Notes under the pieces: generated by a model
The model's database searches: none
Seen by the model: only the letters and a program-made list of their open reading frames with translations
Told to the model about the DNA's origin: nothing
Shown: piece by piece, positions 4,036 through 32,000 of the stretch
Numbering within the stretch: the stretch's first letter is position 1
Layout of the letters: each line of letters opens with the position of its first letter
Made by a program: the position numbers and the translations under genes
Assembly: GCA_965231035.1 (NCBI GenBank)
Contig: OZ246409.1
Span: forward strand, 481,101 to 513,100
DNA: 32,000 nt
From: an uncultured Muribaculaceae bacterium
GTDB lineage: Bacteria > Pseudomonadota > Alphaproteobacteria > Rs-D84
Direction of reading: 5' to 3'

Positions 4036-6519
4036 TTGAAAAAACTAAAACCACGTCATAAACGCCGGCTTTTTTGGGTTATTTTATCGGCATTCGCGGC
4101 AATGCTGGTTGCCATTATTGTTGTTCCACCATTTATAAAATTGAATGGTATTAAACCAGACCTGGAACATGCGATTTCTATACAAACAGGAATAGAAACA
4201 AAAATAGATGGAAATATAAATTTCAGCCTGCTTGGCAGATTAAACATTGTTGCGCATGATGTATTGTTACCAAGTGGTAAAATTGAATCTTTACAATTTG
4301 CGGTTCCTTTATCAAAAATCTTTAATCCTGCATCAGCAGAAATTTCAGGCAAGGTTTTTATATACGGTGCGAATTTACAAATAGATACTCTGACCCCACC
4401 ACGCATAAATAACAAACTGGAAATCAGAAATTCTGTAATATCATTTATGGGCAAAGATTATGAAATAGTCCAAGGACAACTGTCCAATGGTATGCTGAAT
4501 GGCACAGTAAGAACCGACCAGCATAAATATGACTTTGATTCAAATGGTGACGAATTTCATATACAAAACAAAAACAATGACTTGAATATTTCTGGACATT
4601 TATATTCGGACGGAACCGCAACTGGAACATTATCTATTGATACAAATGATGCGAACAAGTTTTTTGACTTTACAGAACCCAAGATTCATAAAAATGTGAA
4701 ATTAACTACGGATTTTACATGGAATGGAAAACATGGAATAAAGTTTGCAAACATCCGCGGTGGTGATTTTACTGGGGAAATAGAACTGTTTGAAGACGGT
4801 CATCGTGAAATAACATTAATGTCTGATGATATAAAATTTGATATATCGTTTTTAATGCGCCCTACTTCGGTATTTTTCAACACCAAGTTTAATATTAATC
4901 TAAGTGGCAGTTTGAAACTGGAAAACAAAATATTTAAACATATAAAAATAGATGCGGTTGGCGAAAAATCCAGAATAAAGATAAATCAAATTGTGGCTGA
5001 TGACATTATAATAAATGGTGGCGAAATAAATGTTAATGGTGCTGAAAATTTGGGGTTAAATTTAAAACTTTATGGCGAAGATGCTTATTGTTTGTTTTCA
5101 GGAACACCTGATGATTGGAATTGTTCAGAATTAAAACAAGGCGAGTTCTATGGCAAAGCCAGCAGCAACAAAAATAGATTTGAACTGTATGTAAAATCCG
5201 ATAAAAATATGCCTGCAAAGGCTATTCTGCTTAAAAAACTTGGATTTCTGGGAAAAAATGGTTATGTTAATTTTAAATTTGCAGATGCAGCTGGAGAAAT
5301 CGATTTAAAAAATTCCATAATCAATCCACACTATGAATTTGTTAAAAACAAGACATTATCTTGGTTGGGGGTAAAGCTGTTCTTTTTACCAGATTATATG
5401 AATACATTGCCTGGTGATTTTAGTTGGTCAAAGAATGATATATTTTTTGAAACTTATTCCAAAAATATTAAATTTGTAATTGGTTCTGACTATTTTGTAA
5501 TAACCGGTAAAGATATCAAAGATTGGTTTCCAAATTCAGATTTAAAATTCTTGAATGACAATATGGCTTATTCGATTTCTGGAAACTATAAGAATTCCAG
5601 TATTTCAAATCTTGAACTTAAAATCGCAGGACACGTTTTCAAAGGAACCGTCGTAGGAAATAATATAACATTAAAAACAGATTTGTTAAATATTGATACT
5701 TTTACCAATCAAAAATTTATTGATAACTTTGATGAAAATCAATTTTTAACTGCTGAACCATTGATGATTCCTTTTGATTTTGGGGTAAATGTTTCGTTTG
5801 CCTCTGACATGATTATATATAATGGAAACCAGTTTACTAATTTTGTGTATTCATTAAAATCAGGTTCATCCCAAGATTTTTCTATAACAGACAGTATGCA
5901 TGGAAATTTATTGGCTGATATTACAAAGTACAAGAATAAATATAACATCACATTACAGCTGAATAAATTTGATATTCCAGAAAGATTGTTTTCATCCACA
6001 ATGCCTGTAAACCTTGAAAACACAACTGTTACAGCCCAGGCTGATTTGACCACAAATGGTAAAATTGCCTATGACATTTGGAATAACCTGTCCGGAAATA
6101 TTGACATGTCTTTCGAAGGTGGAAATATTATCGGTCTGGGGGTTGATGGTTTTTATGCAAATGCAGAAAAAATAACAACTCTGAATGCCGAAGAAATATT
6201 GTCCAATGCCTTGGAAGACGGTAAATCAAAAATCAAAAAAATCCGAGTCACAGGAAAATATAATCACGGTAATTTTACCAGCACACAGCCTTTTGCACTT
6301 TCATTGTACAGGGCAGATTCTATGGGTCGAGTAAATATTGAAAATGGCAAAATGCATATAAAAATGAATTTGATTTTGCGTGGAACATCACCTTCGCCTG
6401 ACCAGATAAATTTGGAAATTATGCCTGATGGAAAACGTGTTTATTCACTGTCTGAAATTATGAAAAACTTTGATCCAGATTTCTTGCGTGAATTTTCAAA
6501 AACACATGAAAAGTTTTAA
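4036..6519 (+). CDS. AsmA-family outer-membrane biogenesis / lipid transport protein
   Basis: 827 aa with a TTG start. Basic N-terminus plus a single TM anchor (LFWVILSAFAAMLVAIIVVPPF), then a long beta-rich body. The C-terminal segment LSGNIDMSFEGGNIIGLGVDG resembles the AsmA-like C-terminal region. Confidence 0.6.
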   Translation: MKKLKPRHKRRLFWVILSAFAAMLVAIIVVPPFIKLNGIKPDLEHAISIQTGIETKIDGNINFSLLGRLNIVAHDVLLPSGKIESLQFAVPLSKIFNPASAEISGKVFIYGANLQIDTLTPPRINNKLEIRNSVISFMGKDYEIVQGQLSNGMLNGTVRTDQHKYDFDSNGDEFHIQNKNNDLNISGHLYSDGTATGTLSIDTNDANKFFDFTEPKIHKNVKLTTDFTWNGKHGIKFANIRGGDFTGEIELFEDGHREITLMSDDIKFDISFLMRPTSVFFNTKFNINLSGSLKLENKIFKHIKIDAVGEKSRIKINQIVADDIIINGGEINVNGAENLGLNLKLYGEDAYCLFSGTPDDWNCSELKQGEFYGKASSNKNRFELYVKSDKNMPAKAILLKKLGFLGKNGYVNFKFADAAGEIDLKNSIINPHYEFVKNKTLSWLGVKLFFLPDYMNTLPGDFSWSKNDIFFETYSKNIKFVIGSDYFVITGKDIKDWFPNSDLKFLNDNMAYSISGNYKNSSISNLELKIAGHVFKGTVVGNNITLKTDLLNIDTFTNQKFIDNFDENQFLTAEPLMIPFDFGVNVSFASDMIIYNGNQFTNFVYSLKSGSSQDFSITDSMHGNLLADITKYKNKYNITLQLNKFDIPERLFSSTMPVNLENTTVTAQADLTTNGKIAYDIWNNLSGNIDMSFEGGNIIGLGVDGFYANAEKITTLNAEEILSNALEDGKSKIKKIRVTGKYNHGNFTSTQPFALSLYRADSMGRVNIENGKMHIKMNLILRGTSPSPDQINLEIMPDGKRVYSLSEIMKNFDPDFLREFSKTHEKF

Positions 6520-6869
6520 ATCACACGAATAAAGTTTCTGCAACATATAGGATCACCAAAAGCATTTAAATGATATTTTTTACCATTTCTGCGAACCAAA
6601 CAACATCCTTCGGTGTAAACATGTATGCCACGTTGATTATAAATTAGAATCCTGTCTGCACCTATTAAATCAGCACGTCTGCCACGAATAATTTTTACAA
6701 ATAAATCATAAAAACCTGATGGTTCGTCATTTTGATACGGGGCATATAATATTCCACCTTTCTTTACCAATCCACCCATATCATACTTATAGAAATTATG
6801 TTCCAGCACACAAACCTGGTAATAAGTCAGGTTTAAACGTTGCGATAAATCTGCAATTTGATTTCTCAC
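6516..6869 (-). CDS. hypothetical protein, Cys-rich C-terminus, no family recognised
   Basis: 117 aa, GTG start preceded by an AAAGAGAAAA purine tract. The C-terminal half contains GCC and ICC doublets. Its stop overlaps the convergent AsmA-family stop by 4 nt. Lies between the aspS terminator and the asmA-family gene. Confidence 0.45.
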   Translation of the reverse strand: MRNQIADLSQRLNLTYYQVCVLEHNFYKYDMGGLVKKGGILYAPYQNDEPSGFYDLFVKIIRGRRADLIGADRILIYNQRGIHVYTEGCCLVRRNGKKYHLNAFGDPICCRNFIRVI

Positions 6870-6936
6870 TCTGTTTTCTCTTTGATGTAAATTATATCGA
6901 AAAAACAGGTTGATATTTATAGGCTTGTATTCTTAC

Positions 6937-6964
6937 TAAAAAACCGCCATACAGGCGGTTTTTC
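6937..6964 (-). terminator. Rho-independent terminator after aspS (symmetric, could work in both directions)
   Basis: CCGCC (6944-6948) / ATACA loop / GGCGG (6954-6958). Flanked by an A-run on one side and a T-run on the other. Immediately downstream of the aspS stop. Confidence 0.7.
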
Positions 6965-8719
6965 TTAGTTCTTTTTTCTGACTTGGATATGAACCTCGCG
7001 CAGTTGTTTTTCTGTAACTTCGCGTGGGGCACCCAACATCAAATCTTGGCCACGTTGATTAGTTGGGAACAATACAACCTCGCGCAGATTTTCTGCCCCA
7101 GACAGCAACATTACCAATCTGTCGATTCCAAATGCACATCCGCCATGTGGTGGTGCACCATACTGGAACGCAGCATACATTCCGCCAAACTTTTCTTTGA
7201 CCACATCTTCGCCATATCCTGCAATTGCAAAAGCTTTTACCATTGTTTCAGGATTATAGTTGCGAAGACCACCACTGCATATTTCATTTCCATTCAAAAC
7301 CATATCAAATTGATTTGCTTTGATTGTCAATGGGTCGCCATCTAATGAACCCTTGGGCAAGCTGAATGGGTTATGTCCAAAATCAATTGTGCCGGTCTCT
7401 TCATTTAATTCGTACATTGGGAAATCTTCGACCCAACATAATCTGAATTCCTTTGGATCAATCAGATTCAAATCTTCACCCAACTTGTTACGCAATTTTC
7501 CTGCTGCTTTGGCTGCGATTTCAGCTTTGTCACATACAAAGAACAAAGATGCATTGTCACCTGCAATTTTGCGCAATTTTGCAATACGATCTGCATCTAA
7601 TTTCTTTGCGACTGGACCTTTGGCCTCTTCTGCAAAAATTATATATCCTAATCCGCCAAGTCCCAGCTCTTTGGTTGCAAACTCACCCAGCTTGTCAAAC
7701 CAAGAACGTGGCTGTGAAGCAGAATTTGGTGCAGGGATTGCGCGAACAACACTGCCACCTGCAACTGCATCAGCAAAGATTCCAAAATCAGACCCACGGA
7801 ATATTTCAGTAACATCAGAAATTTCAATCGGGTTACGCAAATCTGGTTTATCAGACCCATATTTCAACATTGCAGTATCAAATGGTATATGTGGTATTTC
7901 AGAACCGATTTTAGCGTCTGGGGCAAACTTTCTTATCATTTCAGGTATAATTTCATCACCAACAGCCTGGATATCGCGCAGATCAACAAATGACATTTCC
8001 AAATCCAATTGATAAAATTCCAATAATCTGTCTGCACGCAAATCTTCATCACGGAAACATGGCGCAATCTGAAAATAGCGATCAAATCCAGAAATCTGAA
8101 TCAACTGTTTGAACTGCTGTGGGGCCTGAGGTAACGCATAGAACATCCCATGATGATAACGGCTGGGGACGATATAATCGCGTGCACCTTCTGGGCTGCT
8201 GACGGTCAAAATAGGCGTTTGGAATTCTGAAAATCCCATATCCCACATTTTATCACGCAAGAATTTTATAACACTGTTACGGAACAATATATTTTTATGT
8301 AGTGATTCACGACGCAAATCAATATAACGGTATTTCAAACGCAAGTCTTCGCTGACACTGCCATCGTCACCAAATACTTGGAAAGGCAAAACATCTGAAT
8401 TGGTTAAAATTTCCCATGCGCTTGATTGGACTTCAATACTGCCGGTTGGAATTTTATCATTCACTGCTGATTTTTCGCGGGCTACAACCGTTCCAGTAAC
8501 CATAATTACAGATTCAGGACGCAATTTTTCCAAATTCGCATCGCCACCATTAAATACAATTTGTGTAATTCCATAGTTATCACGCAGGTCAATAAACAAC
8601 AAAGACCCATGGTCGCGTTTACGATGAACCCAACCTGATAAAACAACTGTTTCACCAACATTTTTTGTGTTCAGTTCACCACAAGTATGTGTACGATATT
8701 TAGATTTTAATGATAGCAT
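6965..8719 (-). CDS. aspS: aspartate--tRNA ligase (bacterial type)
   Basis: 584 aa. N-terminal OB fold (LSGWVHRKRDHGSLLFIDLRD), class II motif 2 FRDEDLRADR, motif 3 GGCAFGIDRL. Confidence 0.97.
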   Translation of the reverse strand: MLSLKSKYRTHTCGELNTKNVGETVVLSGWVHRKRDHGSLLFIDLRDNYGITQIVFNGGDANLEKLRPESVIMVTGTVVAREKSAVNDKIPTGSIEVQSSAWEILTNSDVLPFQVFGDDGSVSEDLRLKYRYIDLRRESLHKNILFRNSVIKFLRDKMWDMGFSEFQTPILTVSSPEGARDYIVPSRYHHGMFYALPQAPQQFKQLIQISGFDRYFQIAPCFRDEDLRADRLLEFYQLDLEMSFVDLRDIQAVGDEIIPEMIRKFAPDAKIGSEIPHIPFDTAMLKYGSDKPDLRNPIEISDVTEIFRGSDFGIFADAVAGGSVVRAIPAPNSASQPRSWFDKLGEFATKELGLGGLGYIIFAEEAKGPVAKKLDADRIAKLRKIAGDNASLFFVCDKAEIAAKAAGKLRNKLGEDLNLIDPKEFRLCWVEDFPMYELNEETGTIDFGHNPFSLPKGSLDGDPLTIKANQFDMVLNGNEICSGGLRNYNPETMVKAFAIAGYGEDVVKEKFGGMYAAFQYGAPPHGGCAFGIDRLVMLLSGAENLREVVLFPTNQRGQDLMLGAPREVTEKQLREVHIQVRKKN

Positions 8720-10491: not shown

Positions 10492-10829
10492 GTCAAATTT
10501 TCAACCTTGTTTTTTAATATTTTATATCTTTCTATTGTTTCTTTATCATGAAAGTTTCTTTTTATAAAAATAGAATTTTCATAATTTACTGTTTCTGTAA
10601 ATTGATCTTTTGTTGAATCTATTATTTCTCCATCTATAAAATTAAAGAAGTGAGATACACCATTAACTTTTATTTTTCTTATTTCTCCACCAAATTTATC
10701 TTGAATACATAATGCTGAAACAGAACATTGTCCTGTTGATTTTGGTTCTCTTTTATCATTATAAAGAGATGTTTCCGCAGACCAACACTTTGAAAGTTTT
10801 TCAATAAACTTTATAATATCTTTATTCAT
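10488..10829 (-). CDS. YunG-like small protein of unknown function
   Basis: Motif pattern CWSAETS...STGQCSVSALCIQDKFGGEI...HFFNFIDGEIIDSTKDQF, matching the YunG-type family as I remember it. The likely start, ATG 10829, overlaps the upstream stop (ATGA). The ORF-track start at 10862 would overlap the upstream gene by 37 nt. Confidence 0.4.
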   Translation of the reverse strand: MNKDIIKFIEKLSKCWSAETSLYNDKREPKSTGQCSVSALCIQDKFGGEIRKIKVNGVSHFFNFIDGEIIDSTKDQFTETVNYENSIFIKRNFHDKETIERYKILKNKVENLT

Positions 10830-11479
10830 AATTTTATGTATCCATTCTGACAGGCCTTCCACAGGACAACATCAATATACCCGCGTGGCAGACCAGTTTC
10901 AGATTCAAGAAAAGAAAACATATTATCGCAAACTGATTTTATTTCTGGGTTTAGTTTTCCGTTATCTATTTTATCGTTTAGATTAAAGTCCCCACTGTGT
11001 AGCACGCCCAGCCTTTGAATCCAAATATCATATTTTACAACATTTTCACCCAGGTTTCTTGCCAGATGATTTGCAGTAATTTTTCCAATATGTGGTAACG
11101 ATGTTAAAAATGTAATTTTTGAATCCAGATCAGAAATTGAATAATAATCATTTCTGTATTTTTCGCGATTCTGCCAAATTTTTAAAATCGCACCTGTCTT
11201 ATTTTTGTTATTAAAGATTTTTAATAAATCTTCATGATTCGCTAAAATACCGGCTTTTTTGATATAATTTATAATTTCGGCATGTTTTCTTTTGGCAGTT
11301 TTTTGTGAAAAACCCCCAGCCAAAATTACATAGGCAACCATTTCTGCAAATTCATCCGGGGACAGTATTTTTTTGTTCACAAGATTGGCTTTGATTTCAT
11401 CAAATGAACTTGAATCCGAATCCAAACCTGCTGCACGCAGATTTTTTTCTAATTCAAAAAACCAATCGCGTGTGAACAT
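10826..11479 (-). CDS. HhH-GPD superfamily DNA glycosylase-like protein (no Fe-S cluster)
   Basis: The helix-hairpin-helix region LPHIGKITANHLARNLGENVVKYDIWIQRL aligns with EndoIII LPGVGRKTANVVLN....VDTHIFRV, and the catalytic Asp position is conserved. Upstream helix VILAGGFSQKTAKRK. The ATG at 11479 overlaps the upstream TGA; the track uses TTG 11482. Confidence 0.5.
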   Translation of the reverse strand: MFTRDWFFELEKNLRAAGLDSDSSSFDEIKANLVNKKILSPDEFAEMVAYVILAGGFSQKTAKRKHAEIINYIKKAGILANHEDLLKIFNNKNKTGAILKIWQNREKYRNDYYSISDLDSKITFLTSLPHIGKITANHLARNLGENVVKYDIWIQRLGVLHSGDFNLNDKIDNGKLNPEIKSVCDNMFSFLESETGLPRGYIDVVLWKACQNGYIKL

Positions 11480-11772
11480 CAAGACTCTTTCCAGCTTTCT
11501 ATTTTTTCAGACCATTTATCTGGCATTTTATTATCAAGGTAATTCCAAATCTCTTTATCAGAAAAGTTATAAATCTTTTTTATGAATTCCAACATAATAT
11601 AAACATCTGCTGTTTCTTCAAAAATATCTTTTATGTTATCTTTTCCTCTATAAATATTTTTCATAAGTTCTGCTGTTAATTCATTGCACTCTACAATTGT
11701 GCCTATTACAGCAAAATCTTTACCTTTATATTTTAAAATATCATTAAGTATTTGTTCTGTTTTTTTATTCAT
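11479..11772 (-). CDS. MazG-like all-alpha nucleoside triphosphate pyrophosphohydrolase (small single-domain type)
   Basis: ExxE...EExxD signature: IVECNELTAEL and FEETADVYIML. ATG 11772 is preceded by an AAAGG SD, 12-18 nt after the gyrB stop. The track start is TTG 11778. Confidence 0.55.
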   Translation of the reverse strand: MNKKTEQILNDILKYKGKDFAVIGTIVECNELTAELMKNIYRGKDNIKDIFEETADVYIMLEFIKKIYNFSDKEIWNYLDNKMPDKWSEKIESWKES

Positions 11773-14296: not shown

Positions 14297-14866
14297 ATGA
14301 AGTTTAAATTACTGTATTTCGGAGACGTTTTATCAAATCCAAAAAAGCGTGCCCAGCATATCGCTGATATTCGTATGCAATTTCATCCTCAGTTAAAAAA
14401 ATTGATTGAACACAGTCCTTGGAACAACCTTAGCAATTATATGATGCCTGATGCTAAAAAAAGTCCAATTATAACAAAGCATATCGGTGGGATTGATTGG
14501 AACCCTATAATTACACCAACATTAAAAATGATTGCAGAACTGGATATTCAGATGTTACATCCAGAAATTGTAGGAGTGGCCAGAACGGATGTTGATAACC
14601 GTGTAAAAACAATTATGGATGGTTTACGTTGTCCACAAAATGAACATGAAATTGGTGAAAACACACCTAAAAATATGGGTCCAATTTATACTCTTTTGGA
14701 TGACGATCACTTGGTTACAAAAATATCAGTTAATACAAGCCATTTATTATCAAAAGATCTTTTCAAAAATGTTTTGAACGGTGTCAATGAACCGGTCTTT
14801 ATGATGATTGATGTAAACGTTCGTGTGGTTGAAGGGACTTTGGATAATTTACCATTTATGGTTTAA
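14297..14866 (+). CDS. divergent RusA-like endonuclease-fold protein (hypothetical)
   Basis: 189 aa. RTDVDNRVKTIMDGL ... LLDDDHLV reproduces the RusA catalytic pattern DxDNxxKxxxDxL ... DDxxV. There is a roughly 20-aa insertion between the two halves and an extra N-terminal region of about 85 aa. Confidence 0.4.
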   Translation: MKFKLLYFGDVLSNPKKRAQHIADIRMQFHPQLKKLIEHSPWNNLSNYMMPDAKKSPIITKHIGGIDWNPIITPTLKMIAELDIQMLHPEIVGVARTDVDNRVKTIMDGLRCPQNEHEIGENTPKNMGPIYTLLDDDHLVTKISVNTSHLLSKDLFKNVLNGVNEPVFMMIDVNVRVVEGTLDNLPFMV

Positions 14867-14870
14867 TAAA

Positions 14871-14896
14871 AAACCGGCAAAATGCCGGTTTTTTTG
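14871..14896. terminator. bidirectional Rho-independent terminator shared by the RusA-like gene and the pilus-like operon
   Basis: AAAAA-ACCGGCA-AAA-TGCCGGT-TTTTTT. A perfect 7-bp stem with an A-run and a T-run, between two convergent stops. Confidence 0.75.
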
Positions 14897-15967
14897 TTAA
14901 GTTAATGCAGCTGTGATTTGATCCTGCATTTGGAATGTTCCGAATACAACCCAACCTATAATCAAAGAAATAAGTAAAACTCCAACACTATTTAAGGTAT
15001 TTGATATAGATTCCATTTTTCTGACTGATTCATCCAAATAATCATTTGCTATCTTGGAAAGATTTTGATCAAAGGAATTCATATCTGCGTAAATTGCCAA
15101 ATCACCTGCAATTTCATCGTTTGGAAAATTACGGCCTGTATTTGCCAGTGCAGTACCCAAATTATCACCGTTCGCAATAAAATGCAGTGTCAAGTTCAAT
15201 ATGTTTTTAAGATAACTTGAAGAGTTATCTGCTAACATTTTAATTGCCACAGGAACTGTACAGCCAGAAGCAACCATCGAAGACATAGACATTAACCAAC
15301 TAACAGAAACCTGGATTTTATACATATTCCAAGGGGGTAAACCATCAAACAAATTTCTAATTCTGCCAGACCAATTACCCAAACTGAACCATATAATAAT
15401 AATTGCACCAAAGAAAACAGTAACAAAAGCCGGCCAATATTGTGTCGAAAAATTCGCAACCCAAACCAAAGATGCAGCAGATCCACGCCATACAACTTCT
15501 GTTCCGGCTGCTTCGGTCAATGGTGGGACCAAATACATCCCCACCATTACGATAATTCCAATTGTCAATGCTAATAAAAATAATGGGTATGCCAATGCAG
15601 AAAATATTGCTCTTTTCATTTTTTGGCTACCATCTGTGACACGTGTAATATTATCCAAAGCAATTGATAATTTTGAAACATCACCCAATGTTAACAATAA
15701 AGTTTCTTCTGTTGGAACCCAGCCACGTGTAGCTTCGGGAAAAGATTGTCCACGTTCCAGATTCTTTTGCCACGCACGCATTAATATTGCAAAAGGCTCG
15801 TTAGGTTTAATACCTCCGCGGGATTCTATTTGTTCTATACGACCCAAAGCTTCCATCAAGGTAAAATCATTACGCAGTAAAGAAGACAGCTTACGATAAG
15901 TCGCCATTCTTTTTTCTGTATTTATTTTAAAAAGAAGTTTTGCATACAGCAAATCCAATTTTGACAT
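14897..15967 (-). CDS. type IV pilus / T2SS platform protein, GspF/PilC family (PilR/BfpE/TcpE-like)
   Basis: About 356 aa. Polytopic, with three hydrophobic segments (LAYPLFLLALTIGIIVMVGMYLV, YWPAFVTVFFGAIIIIWF, VGVLLISLIIGWVVFG). Size and position directly after the ATPase fit this family. ATG 15967 overlaps the ATPase stop (TGATG). Confidence 0.8.
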   Translation of the reverse strand: MSKLDLLYAKLLFKINTEKRMATYRKLSSLLRNDFTLMEALGRIEQIESRGGIKPNEPFAILMRAWQKNLERGQSFPEATRGWVPTEETLLLTLGDVSKLSIALDNITRVTDGSQKMKRAIFSALAYPLFLLALTIGIIVMVGMYLVPPLTEAAGTEVVWRGSAASLVWVANFSTQYWPAFVTVFFGAIIIIWFSLGNWSGRIRNLFDGLPPWNMYKIQVSVSWLMSMSSMVASGCTVPVAIKMLADNSSSYLKNILNLTLHFIANGDNLGTALANTGRNFPNDEIAGDLAIYADMNSFDQNLSKIANDYLDESVRKMESISNTLNSVGVLLISLIIGWVVFGTFQMQDQITAALT

Positions 15968-17619: not shown

Positions 17620-18282
17620 TTATTTAGATTTACTGATATTCAAGTTTTCTGTAATATCATCCTTTTGAAAAACAACTCCATCATCCAAAGATATTGATTT
17701 TATTGTGTATCCATCCAAAACTTTGCCAACAGAAATCTTTTTATGCTGACCGTTTTCAAGGTTTTCCAATGTTGCCTGCAACTGATTATCTATGCCAATA
17801 ATATCTATCAGTTTATACATATCTGATATTGCTTCTTCTTTTTCTTCATCATCCTTGGCTCTTGCAACAGGTGCTGAGCTTTTTGTTTGATTATTATTTT
17901 GCACACTTGCGGATTGTTTTTGTTTTTCAATTCTGGCAGCTTCTTCTTCCAGTTTTGCTCTTTCATCTGCCAAGGCTTGTTTTTGTTGTTCTGTATTACT
18001 TGATAATGTTTCCATTTCCATACGCAGTTTTTCTTTCTCAGAAGCAAGTCTGTCCATATCCAGATCAATCTGTGCTTTTTCTTTCTGCAATTGCATAATT
18101 ACTTTTTGCTGTTCCAAATCTGTAATCTTTTGAAAAACAGATCCATCAGCATTGTAATCAGAAATAGCATCAGCTGACATTTTGTCAGCTTCCTGATTTT
18201 CATCCGCCATAACAGGTAAAGTAAAAGCACTAAACAATACAAACACTGTCAGCAAAAGATTTTTCATTATTTTATTTTGCAT
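17620..18282 (-). CDS. periplasmic coiled-coil protein with PilP/GspC-HR-like C-terminal domain (PilP/BfpU position)
   Basis: 220 aa. Signal peptide ending PVMA|DE, long coiled coil (QQKVIMQLQKEKAQIDLDMDRLASEKEKLRMEMETL...), low-complexity linker. C-terminal beta domain LIDIIGIDNQLQATLENLENGQHKKISVGKVLDGYTIKSISLDDGVVF. A strong GAGGTGA SD precedes ATG 18282. Confidence 0.45.
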   Translation of the reverse strand: MQNKIMKNLLLTVFVLFSAFTLPVMADENQEADKMSADAISDYNADGSVFQKITDLEQQKVIMQLQKEKAQIDLDMDRLASEKEKLRMEMETLSSNTEQQKQALADERAKLEEEAARIEKQKQSASVQNNNQTKSSAPVARAKDDEEKEEAISDMYKLIDIIGIDNQLQATLENLENGQHKKISVGKVLDGYTIKSISLDDGVVFQKDDITENLNISKSK

Positions 18283-19534
18283 AGATTATCACCTCATAGT
18301 TCCAAGTTCTGGATTCAGCATCCCAGGCACTTCGTGTCATATAGACACCGCTGAAATCGCTAAAAATTTTCATAAATTCTGGTGGTGTTAGTTTAGAAGA
18401 AGCACCTACTTCTACAATATTAACATCAACACTTTCTGTTTCATTAGAAATTGTATTCACAGAAATATTTGTATCCACAGACATATCTAGTTTTTGGAAA
18501 ACTGTATTAACATCTCGTGCAATTGTATTTGGATCTTTTTCTTCCTGTGATGCTTCTGTCTTTATTTCTGGTAATTTTGCACGAACAAAAATCTCTGATT
18601 CTGATTTTTCTTCAACAAAAGCACCAGGCATTAAATCAGTTGCAACTTCGTAAAAATCACCTAAATTACCAAAGCTACGTTTGAAAGTTATACTGGCATA
18701 ATTTTCATTACATTCTGCATTTGTCTGATTCCAACCTGGTACAGGCTGCATCAAAAAAGCAATCGCTTGATAGCATAAATCCGCGCGTTCTTTAACATTT
18801 GGCAAATTATCATACGGCATTTTTAAAGGTTCTGATTGTTTTACTTTTTGCGTATCAAATTTTTTATCCAGCTCTTCGTTTTTCTCTTCGATTTTACGTT
18901 TATACTCTTCTGCCAATATTGGGTTAACATTTGCAATCTGGGGTTTTGGTGTCAACATTTCACTTATAGGTTCTTTGAAAAATTCAGCAATACTAATCAA
19001 GAAAACCATGAACAAAATCAAAGAAAAGATATCTGCCTTTAAATGACTTATTGGTTGTAATGTTGCTTTGACATTTGCAAATACAATTTCTTCCAGTTTT
19101 TTCTCTATAGATCTTGGCATTCCCCACGCAGCAGGCGCAAAGAAAGATCCCCAATCAGGCATTGTTGATAATCTTGTATATTCTGATATTGCTTCGCTTT
19201 CCATATCAAATAAATGGTCTTCGACGATTATACCGTTACGAACAGCAACCAACCAAAACATATTATTTGTCTTGAAAACCGCCAGAAAAGAAGAAAATTC
19301 TGTAAAAGCTTCCATTACCTCGACCGCAGCGCTGGGCATACCAACACTGTGTCCTGAACGTCTGGAACCCAATCCAACCATCGCACGATATTCTGAATAT
19401 AAATTCAGCTTTTTATCAACATTTCTAGATAACTGATGCGCATAATTACGCCCAACAAAGCCAATCGCAACAGGTTGCCAAAACAAACCTGTGGCGTATT
19501 TTTTTTTATCCAAATATATGACTTGATCAACCAA
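18272..19534 (-). CDS. bitopic pilus-assembly protein, R64 PilO / BfpC-like (cytoplasmic domain - TM - periplasmic domain)
   Basis: N-terminal YATGLFWQP-type motif, one central TM (IFSLILFMVFLISIAEFF), about 420 aa, positioned immediately upstream of the PilP-like, ATPase and platform genes. The preferred start is TTG 19534, with a GAGAGAGA SD. The track start, TTG 19591, coincides with the -35 hexamer of the predicted promoter for this gene. Confidence 0.5.
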   Translation of the reverse strand: MVDQVIYLDKKKYATGLFWQPVAIGFVGRNYAHQLSRNVDKKLNLYSEYRAMVGLGSRRSGHSVGMPSAAVEVMEAFTEFSSFLAVFKTNNMFWLVAVRNGIIVEDHLFDMESEAISEYTRLSTMPDWGSFFAPAAWGMPRSIEKKLEEIVFANVKATLQPISHLKADIFSLILFMVFLISIAEFFKEPISEMLTPKPQIANVNPILAEEYKRKIEEKNEELDKKFDTQKVKQSEPLKMPYDNLPNVKERADLCYQAIAFLMQPVPGWNQTNAECNENYASITFKRSFGNLGDFYEVATDLMPGAFVEEKSESEIFVRAKLPEIKTEASQEEKDPNTIARDVNTVFQKLDMSVDTNISVNTISNETESVDVNIVEVGASSKLTPPEFMKIFSDFSGVYMTRSAWDAESRTWNYEVIIYAK

Positions 19535-19561
19535 ATTATGTCTCTCTCTGGTATTTGTATG

Positions 19562-19591
19562 ATTATAACACAAAAGCAAAATAAATAGCAA
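19562..19591 (-). promoter_or_regulatory. sigma70-like promoter with extended -10 for the four-gene pilus-like operon
   Basis: On the minus strand: TTGCTA (19591-19586), 18-nt spacer, TGTTATAAT (19570-19562). Confidence 0.45.
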
Positions 19592-19632
19592 ACACAGAAT
19601 AGCTTGTTTACCGGCTTTTTAACAATATTAAA

Positions 19633-20976: not shown

Positions 20977-21871
20977 TTGTTTTTCCTTTTAACCATGCCC
21001 AAAAAGCCGGTTCTATTGTTGTTTCCAGTTTTGCAACTTTGATTTTTTTCTGAATATCTGATGGTAATCTGACCCAATCTTTTTCAGTTGTTACCAAATC
21101 AGCATTTTCTTTTCTTGCCAATGAAAATAATTTATCTAAATCTGATTTTTTATAATTATAATGATCTGGGAATTTTTTAACTATTTCTGCCCGTGGCGAC
21201 AAACTATCAAAAAACTTTTGCGGATATCCAATTCCTGCAAAAGCAATTATCTTATTTTTAACCTTTGGCAAAATCGTTTTATTTGTTGCATAAAAAACAG
21301 GCTTGCCATAAAACTTATGTTTTAATTTCTGTTTTACACTCTTTATTATTATTACAGCATCAGCACGTTTTATTGCAAAAATAGGTTCACGTAACGGACC
21401 CGCAGGTAAAACAAAACCATTTCCAACACCAATATTTTCATCAAATACAATTATTGATAAATCTTTTTTTATGGTCGGATTTTGAAATCCATCATCCATA
21501 ACTATTGGTGTTTTTGATTTTTGTTTATTTAACAAAACTATATTTTTCTTACGGCTGCCAACATAGACATCTATGCCAGCTTTTTGAAGCATTTTTGCCT
21601 CGTCCCCTGATTGTAAATTCTTATTATTTTTTTTATAACCACGCATAACAACTGGCGCGTTTAAAAACTTTGCAACTTCCATAACTATCGGTGTTTTTCC
21701 AACACCACCTGCCAAAATATTTCCAATACAAATTACCGGTCTTTTTGAAGCTTTTTGCCAAAAAAGCCGGTAAAAATAAATGATCTTACTTGCAATATAA
21801 TAAACCACTGCAAACGGCAACAACAGGTATGCCCATAAGTTTTTTCTTAAAAACCATTCTGGGGTTTTCAT
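20963..21871 (-). CDS. lpxK: tetraacyldisaccharide 4'-kinase
   Basis: 302 aa. N-terminal TM and P-loop GNILAGGVGKTP. Confidence 0.9.
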   Translation of the reverse strand: MKTPEWFLRKNLWAYLLLPFAVVYYIASKIIYFYRLFWQKASKRPVICIGNILAGGVGKTPIVMEVAKFLNAPVVMRGYKKNNKNLQSGDEAKMLQKAGIDVYVGSRKKNIVLLNKQKSKTPIVMDDGFQNPTIKKDLSIIVFDENIGVGNGFVLPAGPLREPIFAIKRADAVIIIKSVKQKLKHKFYGKPVFYATNKTILPKVKNKIIAFAGIGYPQKFFDSLSPRAEIVKKFPDHYNYKKSDLDKLFSLARKENADLVTTEKDWVRLPSDIQKKIKVAKLETTIEPAFWAWLKGKTNGII

Positions 21872-25944: not shown

Positions 25945-26241
25945 TTATGCTTTCAATCCCTTTGGTATTCTTGCTTTGAAAAGTTGTATTTTAGATGAAA
26001 TAATTTGTGCTAATTGTGGTTCTTGTTTTGAAAAACCAGCAATTATTGTATGTGTTATTATTACAGATATTAAGAAAATTAAAGGATCTGCACTGGATCT
26101 ACCGCCTGAAACTATTAAACTACCTATAAAAATAATTATAAAAATTATAAATTGTACAGCAAAATTAACTACCGCCAAAGAATACGGTACATAAAATATT
26201 CGCGATGGATTGGCTAAGGCTTTTAAAACCTGCTGTCTCAT
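25945..26241 (-). CDS. virB3: type IV secretion system protein VirB3/TrbD family
   Basis: 98 aa. LKALANPSRIFYVPYSLAVVNF motif followed by two TM helices. AGGGAG SD. Confidence 0.8.
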   Translation of the reverse strand: MRQQVLKALANPSRIFYVPYSLAVVNFAVQFIIFIIIFIGSLIVSGGRSSADPLIFLISVIITHTIIAGFSKQEPQLAQIISSKIQLFKARIPKGLKA

Positions 26242-26261
26242 ACTTCTCCCTACCTTTTGAA

Positions 26262-26290
26262 ATTATAACAATTTCAACAGTTTTCAACAA
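26262..26290 (-). promoter_or_regulatory. sigma70-like promoter with extended -10 for virB3-virB4
   Basis: On the minus strand: TTGTTG (26290-26285), 17-nt spacer, TGTTATAAT (26270-26262). A short leader carries the AGGGAG SD. Confidence 0.45.
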
Positions 26291-26313
26291 GCATAAAAAC
26301 AAAATTGGAAAAA

Positions 26314-26422
26314 TTGTTAAAAATACTTAAAACTATTGTTTTTTTAACTGTTAATTATTTGTATAAATTTTTAACAATTTTTTATTTTTTATTATAAAAC
26401 TAATATTTTTTTGTTAAAAATA
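26314..26422 (+). repeat. exact 12-mer direct repeat TTGTTAAAAATA (26314-26325 and 26411-26422) plus a 10-bp inverted pair in the AT-rich spacer
   Basis: Read directly from the sequence. AAATTGTTAA (26311-26320) is the exact reverse complement of TTAACAATTT (26371-26380). Confidence 0.5.
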
Positions 26423-26497
26423 TGTTTATTATTTATTAAATATTTATTTAAACAAAACTGACAGATACAACAAAAACAACAATAATATAATAAAAGA

Positions 26498-26525
26498 TTG
26501 ATTTTTTATAAAAACCGTTTATAAT
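26498..26525 (+). promoter_or_regulatory. sigma70-like promoter for rpmJ
   Basis: TTGATT (26498-26503), 16-nt spacer, TATAAT (26520-26525). AAAAGGA SD before ATG 26549. Confidence 0.5.
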
Positions 26526-26548: not shown

Positions 26549-26683
26549 ATGAAATTTTTAAGCTCTTTAAAGGCTTGGAAGAAGCGCGGTAACATAAAAC
26601 AAATACGCCGTGGTAAGCAAGTCATTCTTATTGACCCTGATAAGCCTAAATTTAAGGCCAAACAAGGTTTTAAGAAAAAATAA
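26549..26683 (+). CDS. rpmJ: 50S ribosomal protein bL36 (Cys-less type)
   Basis: 44 aa, so below the ORF-track cutoff. The sequence MKFLSSLKAWKKRGNIKQIRRGKQVILIDPDKPKFKAKQGFKKK matches the MKVxSSLKxxKxR...RRxGxxxVIxxxxPxFKAxQG pattern. It has an SD, a promoter and a terminator. Confidence 0.85.
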   Translation: MKFLSSLKAWKKRGNIKQIRRGKQVILIDPDKPKFKAKQGFKKK

Positions 26684-26714: not shown

Positions 26715-27395
26715 TTAAAATAGCTCGAAATTATTAATAAAAGCCTCTTCTAAGACATTTTTTATTTCTTGGGATGATAACCCAGCTTCACGTAAAAACT
26801 CTACCTGGAAATTGTTTGGTTTATAAATAGACGCAGAATGACCAGCTGATAATGGTGCAGAAGAAATAAGTTGAGATGGTAAAAATTCAATCTTGGCAGA
26901 TTTATCAGCTAAAGCAGAAAAAGTAATATCAGAATCACAATTAGAAAATCTGGAACCTATTTTTGCAGTACCGTTTAATATTGTGTTTGAATTTTTATGT
27001 GCAACAAATTTATTATGAATTTTTACAGTTGTGTCAGATTCCAAATGTTCTGCAATTTCTTCTATTTTTAATTCAGAATAATTTTGTGCTATTACTTCAC
27101 CAAGAAACGAAGAGTTTTTACCGGTATTTTTGATAAAAATATTCAAAAAAGCCGGTTTTTTATTTTGAATTTTTGCAGTTAAAAAAACTTCCTGGTTTGG
27201 GATTTTAATATTAATATTTAAACTTTTGTCACCTTCAATATCCCCAAAATAAATAATATGAATCGGCAAATTATATTTTTTATCAATAACAACAGATTCC
27301 AAAGTTGATAGTTCTGGAACAAAAACACCGTCACGGTAAACAATAGTTTCCGCTAGAAAGGTTTTTATATTGAATTCTTGCCAAAGATAGTTCAT
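26715..27395 (-). CDS. short stand-alone SufD/SufB-family (SufBD core domain) protein
   Basis: 226 aa. The C-terminal signature SAGHSASIYKPNNFQVEFLREAGLSSQEIKNVLEEAFI matches the SufB/SufD pattern (H.A..G.....Q.FYL..RGl....A..ll..aF). About half the length of canonical SufD. Confidence 0.6.
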   Translation of the reverse strand: MNYLWQEFNIKTFLAETIVYRDGVFVPELSTLESVVIDKKYNLPIHIIYFGDIEGDKSLNINIKIPNQEVFLTAKIQNKKPAFLNIFIKNTGKNSSFLGEVIAQNYSELKIEEIAEHLESDTTVKIHNKFVAHKNSNTILNGTAKIGSRFSNCDSDITFSALADKSAKIEFLPSQLISSAPLSAGHSASIYKPNNFQVEFLREAGLSSQEIKNVLEEAFINNFELF

Positions 27396-27436: not shown

Positions 27437-28516
27437 ATGGGTTTCAATTGTGGAATTGTTGGATTACCAAATGTTGGAAAATCGACTTTGTTTAATGCAC
27501 TGACTGAAAGTGCAGCGGCTGATGCTCAAAATTATCCTTTTTGTACAATAGAGCCAAATACTGGGCGTGTAGTGGTCCCAGATGAAATTTTATTAAAACT
27601 AGCAGCAGTTGAAAAATCACAAAAAATCATACCAACACAGCTTGAAATAGTTGATATTGCAGGTCTGGTCAAAGGTGCCAGCAGTGGCGAAGGTTTAGGA
27701 AATAAATTTTTAGGAAATATTTTAGCTGTGGATGCAATAATCCATGTTATCAGATGTTTTGAAAATGATGATATTGTGCATGTAAATGGAAAAATAGATC
27801 CGTTATCAGATATAGAAATAATTGAAACAGAATTGATGTTGGCGGATTTAGAATCCTTGGACAAGCAGATAAAAAATCTGGAAAAAAAGGCTCGTGGTCT
27901 GGATAAAGAGGCAGTAAAAATGCTGTCGGATGCTACCGAAGTTAAAAAAGGTCTAGAATCTGGAATACCAGCCAGATTACAACAAATTGATGCAACCCCG
28001 TTTAATTTATTAACAAAAAAGCCGGTAATTTATGTTTGCAATGTCGAAGAGTCGTCTGCTGCAACCGGAAATAAATTTTCTGATATGGTAAAAAACAAAT
28101 TGGATGGTCAATCGCCAGTTCTGGTAATTTCATCAAAAATAGAAATGGAAATTTCACAAATTGTTGATTTAGAAGAAAGAAAGATGTTTTTAAACGATTT
28201 GGGATTAAACGAATCTGGACTGTCCCAGGTTATCCGTGTTGGTTATGAAACATTGGGGTTACAGACATTTTATACTGTTGGGCCAAAGGAAGCACACGCA
28301 TGGACAATAACACGCGGTATGACTGCACCCCAGGCAGCCGGTAAAATTCATACAGATTTTGAAAAAGGTTTTATTCGTGCAGAAATAATTTCACCAGCAG
28401 ATTATTTGGCATTGGGCAGCGAAACGGCGGTCAAGGAAGCTGGAAAAATGCGTCTAGTCGGCAGAGATTATGTGATGACCGAAGGTGATATCTGTCATTT
28501 CTTGTTTAATAATTAA
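27437..28516 (+). CDS. ychF: ribosome-binding ATPase YchF (Obg-like)
   Basis: 359 aa. G1 motif GIVGLPNVGKST, then DIAGLVKGAS. C-terminal TGS-like domain (GFIRAEI). Confidence 0.95.
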   Translation: MGFNCGIVGLPNVGKSTLFNALTESAAADAQNYPFCTIEPNTGRVVVPDEILLKLAAVEKSQKIIPTQLEIVDIAGLVKGASSGEGLGNKFLGNILAVDAIIHVIRCFENDDIVHVNGKIDPLSDIEIIETELMLADLESLDKQIKNLEKKARGLDKEAVKMLSDATEVKKGLESGIPARLQQIDATPFNLLTKKPVIYVCNVEESSAATGNKFSDMVKNKLDGQSPVLVISSKIEMEISQIVDLEERKMFLNDLGLNESGLSQVIRVGYETLGLQTFYTVGPKEAHAWTITRGMTAPQAAGKIHTDFEKGFIRAEIISPADYLALGSETAVKEAGKMRLVGRDYVMTEGDICHFLFNN

Positions 28517-28517
28517 T

Positions 28518-30140
28518 TTACAAAACTATTGATTCTAAACGTTCTATGGATTTTTTTATTTCTGTATCAATTGCAGCTATCTTGGTTCTAACAGTTTCAT
28601 CACCACCCAATAATTTTGCGGTTAATTCTTTTTTCTGAGCGTTTAATTTTTCCAGATATTTTTTTAGTTTTAATGAAACAATAAATTTTTCTGCATCTTG
28701 CAGGTTAATATCAACACTACCGCCACCAACCCCATCAAAAGATATATTCAAAGTTGCCAAAAATTCCGCATGTATTTCTGCCAGGTCCGGATATTTTTCA
28801 ACAATTGCACGCAATGTTCCCACAGTAATTTTATCTATTTCTGGAACCGCTATATCTGGTAATTTTTTCTTTTTATCCCATTTGTGCCATTGATTAAATT
28901 TACGGCTGTTAAATTCTTTTTCGAATTCAGATCTTAAATCTGGGTCTTTGATTTTTTCTAATTCTTTTTTAATAAATTTCTCGGCTTGGCTGCGACCACC
29001 TGGGGTTGAAATTAAAAAGCTTTTATTAACAAGGTTCCAAAAGAAATCAACAAACGCTTCGGCAGAATCAATAATCTTTTTCATAGATTCAATACCGTTT
29101 TTGCATTTCAAAACCTCGTCAGGGTCTTTACCACCAGTCATAAAAGCAAATTTAACATCAGAAGTATCACGCAAAAATGGTAAAATTATTGAACATGCGC
29201 GTGCTGCTGCCTTTTGACCCGCCGCATCACCGTCAAAACAAAAAGTTATATTTCTGTTCAGTTTACACAAAATTCCGATATGGTCTTCGGTCAATGCAGT
29301 GCCAAGTGGTGCAACTGTTTCGCCAAAACCATGAACCTGCATTTGTATTGCGTCAATTTGTCCTTCGACAACAATACTGCGATTGGTTCTGTGAATTGAT
29401 TCGCGTGCAAAGTTCAAACCAAATATAGTTTTTCTTTTATGAAACAATTCAGTATCTACAGTGTTTATATATTTTGGTTCAGATCCATCCAAACTGCGAC
29501 CTGAAAAAGCAACAACCTGGCCCATTGGATTAAAAATTGGAAACATTAATTTTTCACGGAAAAAGTCATAATTTCCGTATTCTCCCCTGCGAACCAATCC
29601 GGTTGCAGAAAGTTTTTCAAATGGAGTGGTTGCAAATTTTGCAGAAATTACATTGTTTTTTGGTGCGTAACCAATACCATATCTTTTTATAATTTCATCA
29701 GAAAATCCACGACCACGGATATATTCCAAAGCATTACGGCCATCCGGTTCAAACAGTTTTTTTTGATATACATTTGCTGCCGCCGTCATAATATCAATAT
29801 ACGAATCTTCACGCGCTTTTTCTTCTGTGGTTTTTTGTTTAAATTCAGGAACTTTTAATCCCGCCATATTTGCCAGCTCACCAATAGCAGCACGAAAATC
29901 CATATTGTTGGATTTCATTGTGAATGAAATTATATCGCCATGTTCGCCACAGCCAAAACAGTGGTAAAATCCTTTTTCTTCGTTAACAGAAAAACTGGGT
30001 GTTTTTTCATTATGAAATGGACAGCAACCCCAGTAATTTTGACCTTTTTTTGCCAAGGGTACACGTTTACCAACAACGTCCACAATTGATAGACGTTCAC
30101 GTAGTTCATCAGTAAAATTGCGGTCATAATTATTTGGCAT
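28518..30140 (-). CDS. dnaG: DNA primase
   Basis: 540 aa. Zinc ribbon CPFHNEKTPSF...HCFGCGEHGD. Toprim motifs VVEGQIDAI and DGDAAGQKAA. Confidence 0.95.
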   Translation of the reverse strand: MPNNYDRNFTDELRERLSIVDVVGKRVPLAKKGQNYWGCCPFHNEKTPSFSVNEEKGFYHCFGCGEHGDIISFTMKSNNMDFRAAIGELANMAGLKVPEFKQKTTEEKAREDSYIDIMTAAANVYQKKLFEPDGRNALEYIRGRGFSDEIIKRYGIGYAPKNNVISAKFATTPFEKLSATGLVRRGEYGNYDFFREKLMFPIFNPMGQVVAFSGRSLDGSEPKYINTVDTELFHKRKTIFGLNFARESIHRTNRSIVVEGQIDAIQMQVHGFGETVAPLGTALTEDHIGILCKLNRNITFCFDGDAAGQKAAARACSIILPFLRDTSDVKFAFMTGGKDPDEVLKCKNGIESMKKIIDSAEAFVDFFWNLVNKSFLISTPGGRSQAEKFIKKELEKIKDPDLRSEFEKEFNSRKFNQWHKWDKKKKLPDIAVPEIDKITVGTLRAIVEKYPDLAEIHAEFLATLNISFDGVGGGSVDINLQDAEKFIVSLKLKKYLEKLNAQKKELTAKLLGGDETVRTKIAAIDTEIKKSIERLESIVL

Positions 30141-30152
30141 TAACTTTTTATT

Positions 30153-32000
30153 CTATTTCTTTCTACCCCAGGATTTTTTAGCACTTGGTTTTTTATTGTT
30201 AATTAAATCAGCAGCGGTTGCCAAATCAGGTTGCTCTTTCACACTGACATTAACTTTGTTTGATGAAATGTATGCACCATAACGACCTTCGGCATAATAC
30301 AAAATAGGTTTATCTGTTTTTGGGTTGATGCCCAACTCGATACCTTCGGCTTTTTTCTTTTCCCCAGATAAGAGTTCATTAGCAATTTCTAAAGTAATTG
30401 TGTCAGCATTATATTTTTTTGCAGATGCGTTTTTTTTGCCATCTGTAACATATGGGCCAAAACGACCGGTTTTGAATTTAATTCCATTACCTAAATCTTT
30501 TTCTGATGCACCGGCTTTTTCTTCAGAATTTTCACCATTTACCGGCATATTTGACAGTTTTTGAGTATAATCACAAGTTGGATAGTTTGAACAACCTATA
30601 AAAGCACCATATTTAGACAACTTTAAAGAAAGTGCTCCACCACATTTTGGACACTTATCGCCGGCTTTTTTGAATAAATGTTCATACATGTTTTTATTAA
30701 TTTCATCAATAATTTCGGTTGTTTTAATGTCTTTTGCGGAATCAATCATCTTTTGGGTTGGTTGCCAAAACTCGGATAAAGCCGGTGTTTTTGCAACTTT
30801 TCCATTTGAAACATCGTCCAAAGTATCTTCGGTCTTAGCAGTAAAATTAACATCAACCAGGTCAGGAAAATACTTTGACAGATATGCAGCAATGACCCAA
30901 CCGCCTGATGTTGGCGAAAAACGGCGCTGTTTATCCTGTTCTACATAGTTTCTATCAACAATAGTGCTCATAATAGCAGCATAAGTTGATGGTCGACCTA
31001 TTCCAAGCTCTTCCAGCTTTTTTACCAGTGAAGCTTCGGTATATTTGGCTGGCGGTTGAGTGAAATGTTGATCTGGGGTCAGTTTTTTAATAGTTATAAA
31101 ATCACCCACAGATAATGTTGGTAATTTTTCTTCAGCGTCATCATCAGATGAATCATCAGTATCTTCTTGATAAACCTTCATAAATCCATCAAATGTTCGG
31201 GTTGTTCCAACCGCATGAAAGGTGGCTAACTTTTTATTATCTTGAATATCCACAGAAACACTGTCAAATTCGGCGTTTGTCATTTGGCATGCAATTGTGC
31301 GTTTCCAAATAAGGTCATAAAGTTTTATTTCATCACCTTCTGCGCTGCAAGCCGCAGAATCAAAGTGTGTAGGGCGAATTGCTTCGTGGGCTTCTTGGGC
31401 ATTTTTTGACTTAGTTACATATATATTTGGTGTTTCTGGCAGGAAGTTTTTACCGTATTCATGTTCAATAAAGCCCTGAATTCCGGTAATACTGTCAATA
31501 GACAGGTTGGTTGAATCGGTTCTCATATAGGTTATTAGACCTTGCTCATAAAGTCGCTGGGCGGCAGCCATAGTGCGTTTGGAGCTGAAATAAAGCTTCC
31601 TGGCAGCCTCTTGTTGAAGGGTGCTGGTAGTGAACGGAGCCGCAGGTTTTCGGGATATTTTGCGTTTTTCTAGTAAAATTACAGATGCGGCAATAGGTAC
31701 TTGCAATTTTGATAAAATATTATCCATTTGACCCTTAGATTCAATGGTCATCTTGTCGATTTTTTGCCCGTTTTCTGCGAAAAGTTTGGCATTAAAGGAA
31801 TTTTGTCCTTTTTCGCATATTGCGGTCAGTGACCAATACTCTTTTGGTACAAATTTTTCGATTTCTCGCTCGCGATCTACCACTAATTTGACCGCAACTG
31901 ACTGTACACGACCAGCAGATTTTCCCAGATTCCTGCGCCATAGAAGCGGAGAAATGCCAAAACCAATCAAATAATCCAAAGCACGGCGTACAAGATAGGC
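30153..32000 (-). CDS. topA: DNA topoisomerase I (N-terminus lies beyond the window end)
   Basis: The frame stays open to nt 32000 (…RALDYLIGFGISPLLWRR). Active-site region ITYMRTDST, Zn ribbon CPKCGG...CSNYPTCDY, Lys-rich C-terminal tail. Confidence 0.95.
   Translation of the reverse strand, partial: AYLVRRALDYLIGFGISPLLWRRNLGKSAGRVQSVAVKLVVDREREIEKFVPKEYWSLTAICEKGQNSFNAKLFAENGQKIDKMTIESKGQMDNILSKLQVPIAASVILLEKRKISRKPAAPFTTSTLQQEAARKLYFSSKRTMAAAQRLYEQGLITYMRTDSTNLSIDSITGIQGFIEHEYGKNFLPETPNIYVTKSKNAQEAHEAIRPTHFDSAACSAEGDEIKLYDLIWKRTIACQMTNAEFDSVSVDIQDNKKLATFHAVGTTRTFDGFMKVYQEDTDDSSDDDAEEKLPTLSVGDFITIKKLTPDQHFTQPPAKYTEASLVKKLEELGIGRPSTYAAIMSTIVDRNYVEQDKQRRFSPTSGGWVIAAYLSKYFPDLVDVNFTAKTEDTLDDVSNGKVAKTPALSEFWQPTQKMIDSAKDIKTTEIIDEINKNMYEHLFKKAGDKCPKCGGALSLKLSKYGAFIGCSNYPTCDYTQKLSNMPVNGENSEEKAGASEKDLGNGIKFKTGRFGPYVTDGKKNASAKKYNADTITLEIANELLSGEKKKAEGIELGINPKTDKPILYYAEGRYGAYISSNKVNVSVKEQPDLATAADLINNKKPSAKKSWGRKK

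Follow-up and report, generated by a model that had tools for sequence, protein, structure and literature searches.

A ten-base word, AAAAAGCCGG, recurs in the 32,000-nucleotide stretch of DNA analysed here (the window, bases 481,101-513,100 of the single 716,531-bp contig, approximately 36% GC, of an uncultured alphaproteobacterium of the Rs-D84 lineage, genome G000; relatives are numbered from G001), and most of its copies in the genome are confined to a 55-kb block that ends at gidB-parA-parB. The predicted functional unit is a 16-bp near-palindrome, AAAAAR-CCGG-YTTTTT, of which the word forms the left half. By analogy with RacA/ram or RicO/ricS, we tentatively interpret these sites as an accessory, protein-binding array of the origin domain, a prediction to which we would assign a probability of approximately 0.4.

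Within the window, nine exact copies of the word were found against 0.17 expected, and none of 100 dinucleotide-preserving shuffles gave nine; at up to one mismatch there were 19 matches against 2.9 expected. The initial annotation of this DNA had listed nine copies and had guessed that well under one would be expected by chance. All of its coordinates and strands were borne out, as was the guess, and the finer details were also correct: a sixth A in six of the nine copies, T as the next base in seven, the longer form TCAAAAAAGCCGG common to three, and near-variants at 435, 15424, 21735/6, 27121 and 30778. Its estimate of roughly two dozen GCCGG/CCGGC pentamers compares with a window count of 29. 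The GCC codon that it described as rare is indeed a minor Ala codon (14% of Ala), and two further codons used at the sites, CCG for Pro (12%) and CGG for Arg (3%), are even rarer.

Across the whole 716-kb genome there are 21 copies of the word against approximately three expected (Markov orders 3-5), and 16 of these lie within 485,165-539,763, a block that represents 7.7% of the genome. The scan found no copy between 246.5 and 485 kb and none past 540 kb. Under a null model in which every protein sequence and each gene's codon pool were held fixed, the 16 copies in the block compare with 3.3 expected (a value that includes two non-coding copies, which cannot be shuffled), approximately a five-fold excess, whereas the rest of the genome has five copies against approximately 4.2. 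The genome-wide comparison with a codon-aware expectation, which the initial annotation had proposed as a check on over-representation, therefore gave a divided answer: outside the block the ratio was near 1, as a refutation would have it, and inside the block that ratio was clearly exceeded. The proposal of a signal at the DNA level, as opposed to a peptide motif, fared better, as the copies occupy three sense frames as well as antisense frames, use rare codons and exceed the codon-aware null; a peptide motif or codon usage as the cause was ruled out by the varied frames and the codon-preserving shuffle.

The clustering is exceptional by several measures. When 20 sites were placed at random 200,000 times, no span of this size ever held more than 11 of them, so that a cluster of 15 was never reached. 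When ten-mers with at least ten dispersed copies were ranked by regional clustering, the word came first of 10,257 (scan p ~6e-10), and the clustering of the next unrelated ten-mer was four orders of magnitude weaker. Similarly, when the block was contrasted with the rest of the genome for k = 6-10, AAA(AA)GCCGG(T) headed the list at each k. The overall composition of the block is ordinary and only this word family sets it apart. Foreign or chimeric DNA could be ruled out because general composition is unchanged and no other word distinguishes the block in the k-mer contrast; the block is, furthermore, collinear with that of relatives. There is a lesson here for motif scans, as a genome-wide ratio of observed to expected counts ranks the word as only mildly enriched, and the signal is in the location of the copies.

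The location is next to the presumptive origin. The parB gene (538.9-539.8 kb; locus L003:1402-2274) follows gidB and parA, and the minimum of cumulative GC skew falls at approximately 530-545 kb. Because the end of the block coincides with gidB-parA-parB and with this minimum, the block is the origin-proximal 55 kb of the leftward-replicated replichore. Its genes are mostly on the minus strand, and the stretch from parB to the window includes gidA, fabG, several aminoacyl-tRNA synthetase genes and the mreC/PBP2/rodA genes; dnaA is elsewhere, at 374 kb. We considered the AT-rich spacer at window positions 26242-26505 (approximately 260 bp, 16% GC) as an origin and rejected it, as it is instead the promoter region upstream of a 44-codon rpmJ-like (ribosomal protein L36) gene (26550-26681) and not an evident origin. 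A small open reading frame (ORF) for a VirB-type membrane protein (25947-26241) is divergent from this rpmJ-like gene.

The unit under selection appears to be larger than the word itself. Every genomic CCGG was scored against AAAAAR on its left and YTTTTT on its right, with a maximum of 12. Twenty sites in the genome score at least 10/12 and 15 of these are in the block, whereas among sites scoring 6 or less the proportion in the block is 5-12%, near the background of 8%. Sites with one perfect half and a poor partner are much less region-specific (9 of 26 in the block). As region-specificity is greatest for two-sided sites and low for lone half-sites, we predict that the functional unit is the 16-bp near-palindrome, and this two-sided form suggests a dimeric reader. 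In the block copies the base after GCCGG is C or T and is followed by a T-rich stretch, but this does not hold for copies outside. Of 104 distinct contexts from G000 and its relatives, 94 have C or T as the next base, and the frequency of T rises to 60-68% another three to four bases along. Strand polarity is absent (eight plus and eight minus copies in a single replichore), and the bias of strand or orientation relative to replication for which the initial annotation had suggested a test was therefore not found; nor is there any sense or antisense bias relative to the host gene. Of the 16 block copies, 13 fall within coding sequences and have no hairpin. Imperfect inverted pairs, with copies 25-30 nt apart and a stem of approximately 10 bp possible, occur in lpxK and in a SufBD-like gene (Table 1) and in gidB (G000 537,831-537,870); in gidB, the codons of the arms are invariant across genera and those between the arms are variable.

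The relatives, as defined by ParB, are metagenome-assembled genomes of uncultured gut Alphaproteobacteria, including Candidatus Enterousia. The word outnumbers its reversed control in most members of the family, and in at least nine relatives with sufficiently long contigs between a third and three quarters of the copies lie within approximately 50-100 kb of parB (clustering on the parB side was seen in G001, G004, G017, G018, G035 and G041-G045). In G041, which has a complete 958-kb chromosome, six of 12 copies are in 157.7-204.2 kb and parB is at 158.8 kb. The synteny block running from fabG to an AsmA-like gene adjoins parB in all of these relatives, in G041 on the opposite side. A five-copy tandem array in G042 was considered as part of an origin array and discarded, as it has a coding cause in a gene with Lys/Ala/Pro repeats (histone-H1-like): in this 141-residue ORF (L110:5203-5628; G042:C1, approximately 81.2-81.6 kb) the AKKPV repeats are encoded as GCT AAA AAG CCG GTT, which creates AAAAAGCCGG five times and inflates the count for G042.

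Mapping at the codon level revealed that individual sites turn over. Wide conservation was found only for the gidB site (CGG CTT TTT), the SufBD-like site and, in part, the ychF site. Both topA sites, those at window positions 11250 and 21761, and those in pheT and ileS arose in the G000/G001 lineage, through synonymous and non-synonymous changes; G041, G043 and G044, for their part, carry the word at other positions in the block, such as two sites in lpxC (G044) and one in dnaG (G041). G000 and G001 share 77% nucleotide identity, and at eight of their 13 alignable sites the word is conserved in full. The corresponding values are 12% (random ten-mers) and 25% (other A5+S5 words), so that conservation of the word exceeds that of random ten-mers approximately five-fold and that of composition-matched words 2.5-fold. 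The check on conservation in relatives that the initial annotation had called for was positive, in that the word is kept between species far better than its flanks. G001 has 17 copies, of which 13 map to this block; five of these 13 are missing from G000. Because sites turn over, their location persists and purifying selection acts on them, the pattern is the signature of a selected DNA signal.

Among the readings that the initial annotation offered, a protein-recognition word is the best fit to sites that are regionally confined, two-sided, independent of frame, strand and codon preference, under purifying selection, and subject to turnover while remaining clustered on the parB side. We propose that approximately 15 good 16-bp sites, spaced roughly every 3-4 kb across the 55 kb ending at gidB-parA-parB, would be bound by a dimeric, sequence-specific DNA-binding protein. 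The bound protein may mark, compact or anchor the origin domain, and the array would in that case be an accessory, centromere-like element, comparable to ram, ricS and multi-site parS arrays.

Several results weigh against this proposal. One comes from G003, which belongs to the same genus, is collinear over the block and keeps ParB, yet has no copy of the word there and one copy in its entire genome; on its 186-kb contig carrying the block, no CCGG site scored 10/12 or more. As G003 lacks copies in the block, the array is dispensable. Several family members carry just the gidB copy within 10 kb of parB, and the clustering in the more distant relatives rests largely on three or four conserved sites. 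The cluster is one-sided to parB in G000, G001 and G041, and an origin-centred function does not require one-sidedness. We found no convincing DnaA-box cluster, and only GC skew and gene content served to place the origin. Causes linked to location and causes linked to the gene block are not separable on these data. Finally, no reader protein was found, and the hypothetical ORFs of the block gave no DNA-binding Pfam match. The genome of G003 is 724 kb at 27% GC, compared with 36% in G000, and collinearity between the two extends for at least 45 kb. Among 730 crude G000 ORFs, 207 had no tblastn match in G003. In a search for the reader through gene loss in G003, screening was confined to the few block members of these 207 (YunG, an HD-domain protein, GpsA and small ORFs), none of which showed a DNA-binding signature. 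A MerR-type reader, suggested by the analogy with RacA, was rejected since the one MerR-family gene occurs in G003 too, where the block has no copy of the word.

How does the proposed array compare with known systems? For RacA/ram in Bacillus subtilis, a recent report describes approximately 25 preferred sites that flank oriC and anchor the origin region (bioRxiv 10.64898/2026.03.06.710092). As in that system, the motif described here is a short, GC-cored inverted repeat that is confined near the origin and separate from parS. However, the sequence and the phylum are different, the span is 55 kb here and approximately 600 kb for ram, the array lies mostly on one side of parB and almost wholly inside coding sequences, and no RacA-like reader was found. 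The recently described RicO/ricS system of Staphylococcus aureus has nine copies of an 18-bp, non-palindromic motif, ricS, over the ~700 kb nearest the origin, and an origin-anchoring protein binds them independently of ParB/parS (bioRxiv 10.64898/2026.03.06.710092). Again a specific motif is restricted to the origin-proximal chromosome and is distinct from parS, whereas the motif in G000 is a 16-bp near-palindrome with approximately 15 copies in 55 kb. A literature search for the word returned only primers. To our knowledge, there are few cases of origin-proximal arrays of non-parS motifs, and all of them (ram and ricS) are from Firmicutes. If our reading is correct, this would be the first such array in Alphaproteobacteria, and in a strongly reduced, uncultured and probably partner-dependent bacterium. 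It would also mean that coding sequence can carry nearly all of the marks of an origin domain, at a cost in rare codons and amino-acid changes.

A different explanation is that the copies have no present function and are a relic of an old import, or of a regional mutational or recombinational bias, inherited with the synteny block. In keeping with this, the cluster goes with one and the same synteny block in every relative, even in G041, where the block is on the other side of parB; G003 has retained the genes and none of the block copies; and copy number is low in several relatives. We nevertheless regard a relic as unlikely. Conservation well above that of random ten-mers (approximately five-fold) and composition-matched words (2.5-fold) argues against it, as do the independent gains in G000/G001, G041, G043 and G044, which are always within the block. 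Furthermore, no other word distinguishes the block, as foreign DNA would require, and the sites override codon preference.

The proximity of parB raises the question of whether ParB itself reads the word. No canonical parS was found near parB, nor at up to one mismatch in the complete genome of G041. The sole perfect match to TGTTNCACGTGNAACA in G000 (336,433-336,448) is 200 kb from parB, has no counterpart near parB in relatives, and is probably a chance or coding match. In ParB, Arg173 and Gly201 are described as absolutely conserved and as reading parS positions 1 and 6 (PMC7383237). In the ParB proteins of G000, all 23 readable relatives and G003, Arg173 (Caulobacter numbering) is replaced by E, Q, A, D or V and Gly201 by Ser. 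Many relatives have a variant parS palindrome, TRTTTCAYRTGAAAYA, at the gidB/parA junction, and 12-15 of its 16 positions agree with canonical parS; a further copy is often present 1-3 kb upstream. G000 has exactly two copies of the core of this variant, TTTCAYRTGAAA, both within 4 kb of parAB, at 534,860 and 537,973 (16-mers 534,858-534,873 and 537,971-537,986), and G003 has kept two such sites upstream of parB. Since G003 keeps ParB and TTTCAYRTGAAA but not the word, ParB most likely reads the variant parS, with the word as a separate and dispensable layer. The residue changes and the shifted parS look like co-evolution of ParB and its site; this combination of replaced 'invariant' residues and an altered parS core is directly testable with purified proteins.

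It seems quite improbable that the word-bearing sites are secondary or lineage-specific loading sites for a ParB with changed DNA-specificity residues. The idea has several attractions: many 16-bp palindromes are clustered beside parAB and the origin, as in a multi-copy parS array, canonical parS is missing near parB, Arg173 and Gly201 are replaced in all orthologues examined, and one word-like site (genome 534,858-534,884) overlaps the second variant parS. However, TRTTTCAYRTGAAAYA, beside parA, is the better candidate for the ParB site, the word is unrelated to the parS consensus, and the two separate TTTCAYRTGAAA sites are more strongly conserved. The abundance of the word does not track residue 173, and G003 has retained ParB and two TTTCAYRTGAAA sites with no word in the block. 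The half-sites of the word and of TGTTNCACGTGNAACA are without similarity, and canonical parS, absent near parB, was rejected as an explanation. A combined picture for Rs-D84 and Candidatus Enterousia is possible, and we advance it with rather less than even confidence: approximately 15 AAAAARCCGGYTTTTT in housekeeping coding sequences beside parABS would form a centromere-like array with a putative reader, ParB would have dispensed with Arg173 and Gly201, and parS would have shifted to TTTCAYRTGAAA.

Uptake of DNA was the hypothesis to which the initial annotation was most drawn, on account of the pilus operon in the window. G000 encodes PilB/PilC-like proteins (in the window), ComEC and DprA, and because these competence-type genes are present natural transformation is plausible. 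The word resembles the DNA uptake sequence of Neisseria and the uptake signal sequence of Pasteurellaceae in being short, present on both strands and in all frames, and over-represented (with the excess over the codon-aware null inside the block only), and a few of its copies form inverted pairs or terminators. An uptake signal that biases transformation is, even so, very improbable. According to one study, known uptake sequences number hundreds to thousands per genome (PMC2346458), whereas G000 has just 21 copies in 716 kb, with those outside the 55-kb block at the level of expectation (five against approximately 4.2). Enrichment peaks for two-sided palindromes, which indicates a dimeric binder, and the word is palindromic where uptake sequences are asymmetric. 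Moreover, G003 keeps the block and the pilus genes, and its ComEC and DprA ORFs are not among the unmatched, yet it has one copy. The pilus operon is thus a neighbour and gives no evidence for uptake. The other suggestion made at that stage, a Chi-like guide sequence or one akin to the FtsK-orienting polar sequences (KOPS), fails on the lack of strand polarity (8/8 in one replichore) and of a genome-wide distribution.

The genome does contain hairpins that resemble the word in form. Our genome-wide census found intrinsic terminators of the type AAAAAA-CCGCC...GGCGG-TTTTTT or AAAAAA-CCGGC...GCCGG-TTTTTT, with arms that are other words than AAAAAGCCGG. Bidirectional terminators with near-identical arms, AAAAAA-CCGCC(A)...(T)GGCGG-TTTTTT, occur for example at window 14868-14894 and at G000 4613, 17669, 47767 and 132979. 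The most over-represented GC-containing 12-mer, AAAAAACCGCCA, has 33 evenly spread copies in the genome and is explained by terminators. The enrichment of the word in terminators that the initial annotation had suggested looking for was absent, as only one of the 16 block copies, that after parB, is in a terminator hairpin, and a by-product of terminators was ruled out by the census on the grounds that the arms differ and that a single block copy is involved. The least probable of the explanations considered takes the copies for components of hairpins in RNA or in DNA (intrinsic terminators, attenuators or processing sites) and not for protein sites: the A-tract/GC-stem/T-tract form of the genome's terminators, the two terminators at 14868-14894 and at the copy that follows parB, and the inverted pairs in lpxK, the SufBD-like gene and gidB are in its favour, but natural terminator arms are AAAAAACCGGC and GCCGGTTTTTT, a terminator holds just that one block copy, most copies have no inverted partner, and orientations sense and antisense to the host gene are equally frequent.

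The sites in the window are listed in Table 1.

Table 1. Copies of the word, near-variants and a related terminator in the window (window positions; palindrome score is for the 16-mer against AAAAAR-CCGG-YTTTTT).
Feature	Position	Strand	Score	Context	Occurrence in relatives
Exact word	4065-4074 (16-mer 4059-4074)	-	10/12	Approximately 30 nt into the longest AsmA-like ORF (TTG start 4036), codons CGC CGG CTT TTT; approximately 75 nt from the start of divergent uvrB	
Exact word	11250-11259 (16-mer 11244-11259)	-	11/12	Sense strand of hypothetical ORF 10826-11482 (KKAG)	Orthologous sites of G043 and G044 lack it
Bidirectional intrinsic terminator, AAAAAACCGGC-AAAA-TGCCGGTTTTTT	14868-14894	.		Flanked by ORF 14297-14866 and the pilC-like gene; a near-variant and no exact copy	
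Near-variant CAAAAGCCGG	15424-15433	+		Within the T2SS-F/PilC-like gene	
Exact word	19611-19620	-		Intergenic, 20 nt upstream of ORF 18272-19591 of the pilus-type operon	Core retained in G001
Exact word (16-mer)	21001-21016	+	10/12	lpxK, at its 3' end and immediately before the start of lpxC; antisense to the gene (PAF)	Absent from G001 and G044
Inverted pair	21736-21770	+		5' part of lpxK: CCGGTCTTTTT, 14-nt spacer, exact word 21761-21770	Exact word kept in G001; absent in G041, G043 and G044
Inverted pair	27121-27161	+	12/12 (16-mer 27146-27161)	SufBD-like gene: CCGGTATTTTT, spacer, exact word 27146-27155	Best-conserved coding site: in G001, G004, G041 and G043; 34 nt identical in G001
Exact word (16-mer)	28016-28031	+	10/12	Sense strand of ychF (KKPV)	Retained in G004; one mismatch in G001
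Exact word	30511-30520	-		Variable linker of topA (EEKAG)	Common to G001 only
Exact word	30661-30670	-		topA (KKAG)	Common to G001 only; other residues encoded in G004 and more distant relatives
Near-variant ATAAAGCCGGTGTTTT	30776-30791	+	10/12	topA	

The genes that surround these sites in the window are largely of a housekeeping nature, and include an FtsA-Rpe fusion, tsaE, uvrB, aspS, UDG, gyrB, the PilB/PilC-type pilus genes, lpxC and lpxK, together with a VirB4-like ATPase gene, the SufBD-like gene, ychF, dnaG and topA. The fusion, at window positions 48-1589, is a single ORF that joins an FtsA-like domain to ribulose-phosphate 3-epimerase.

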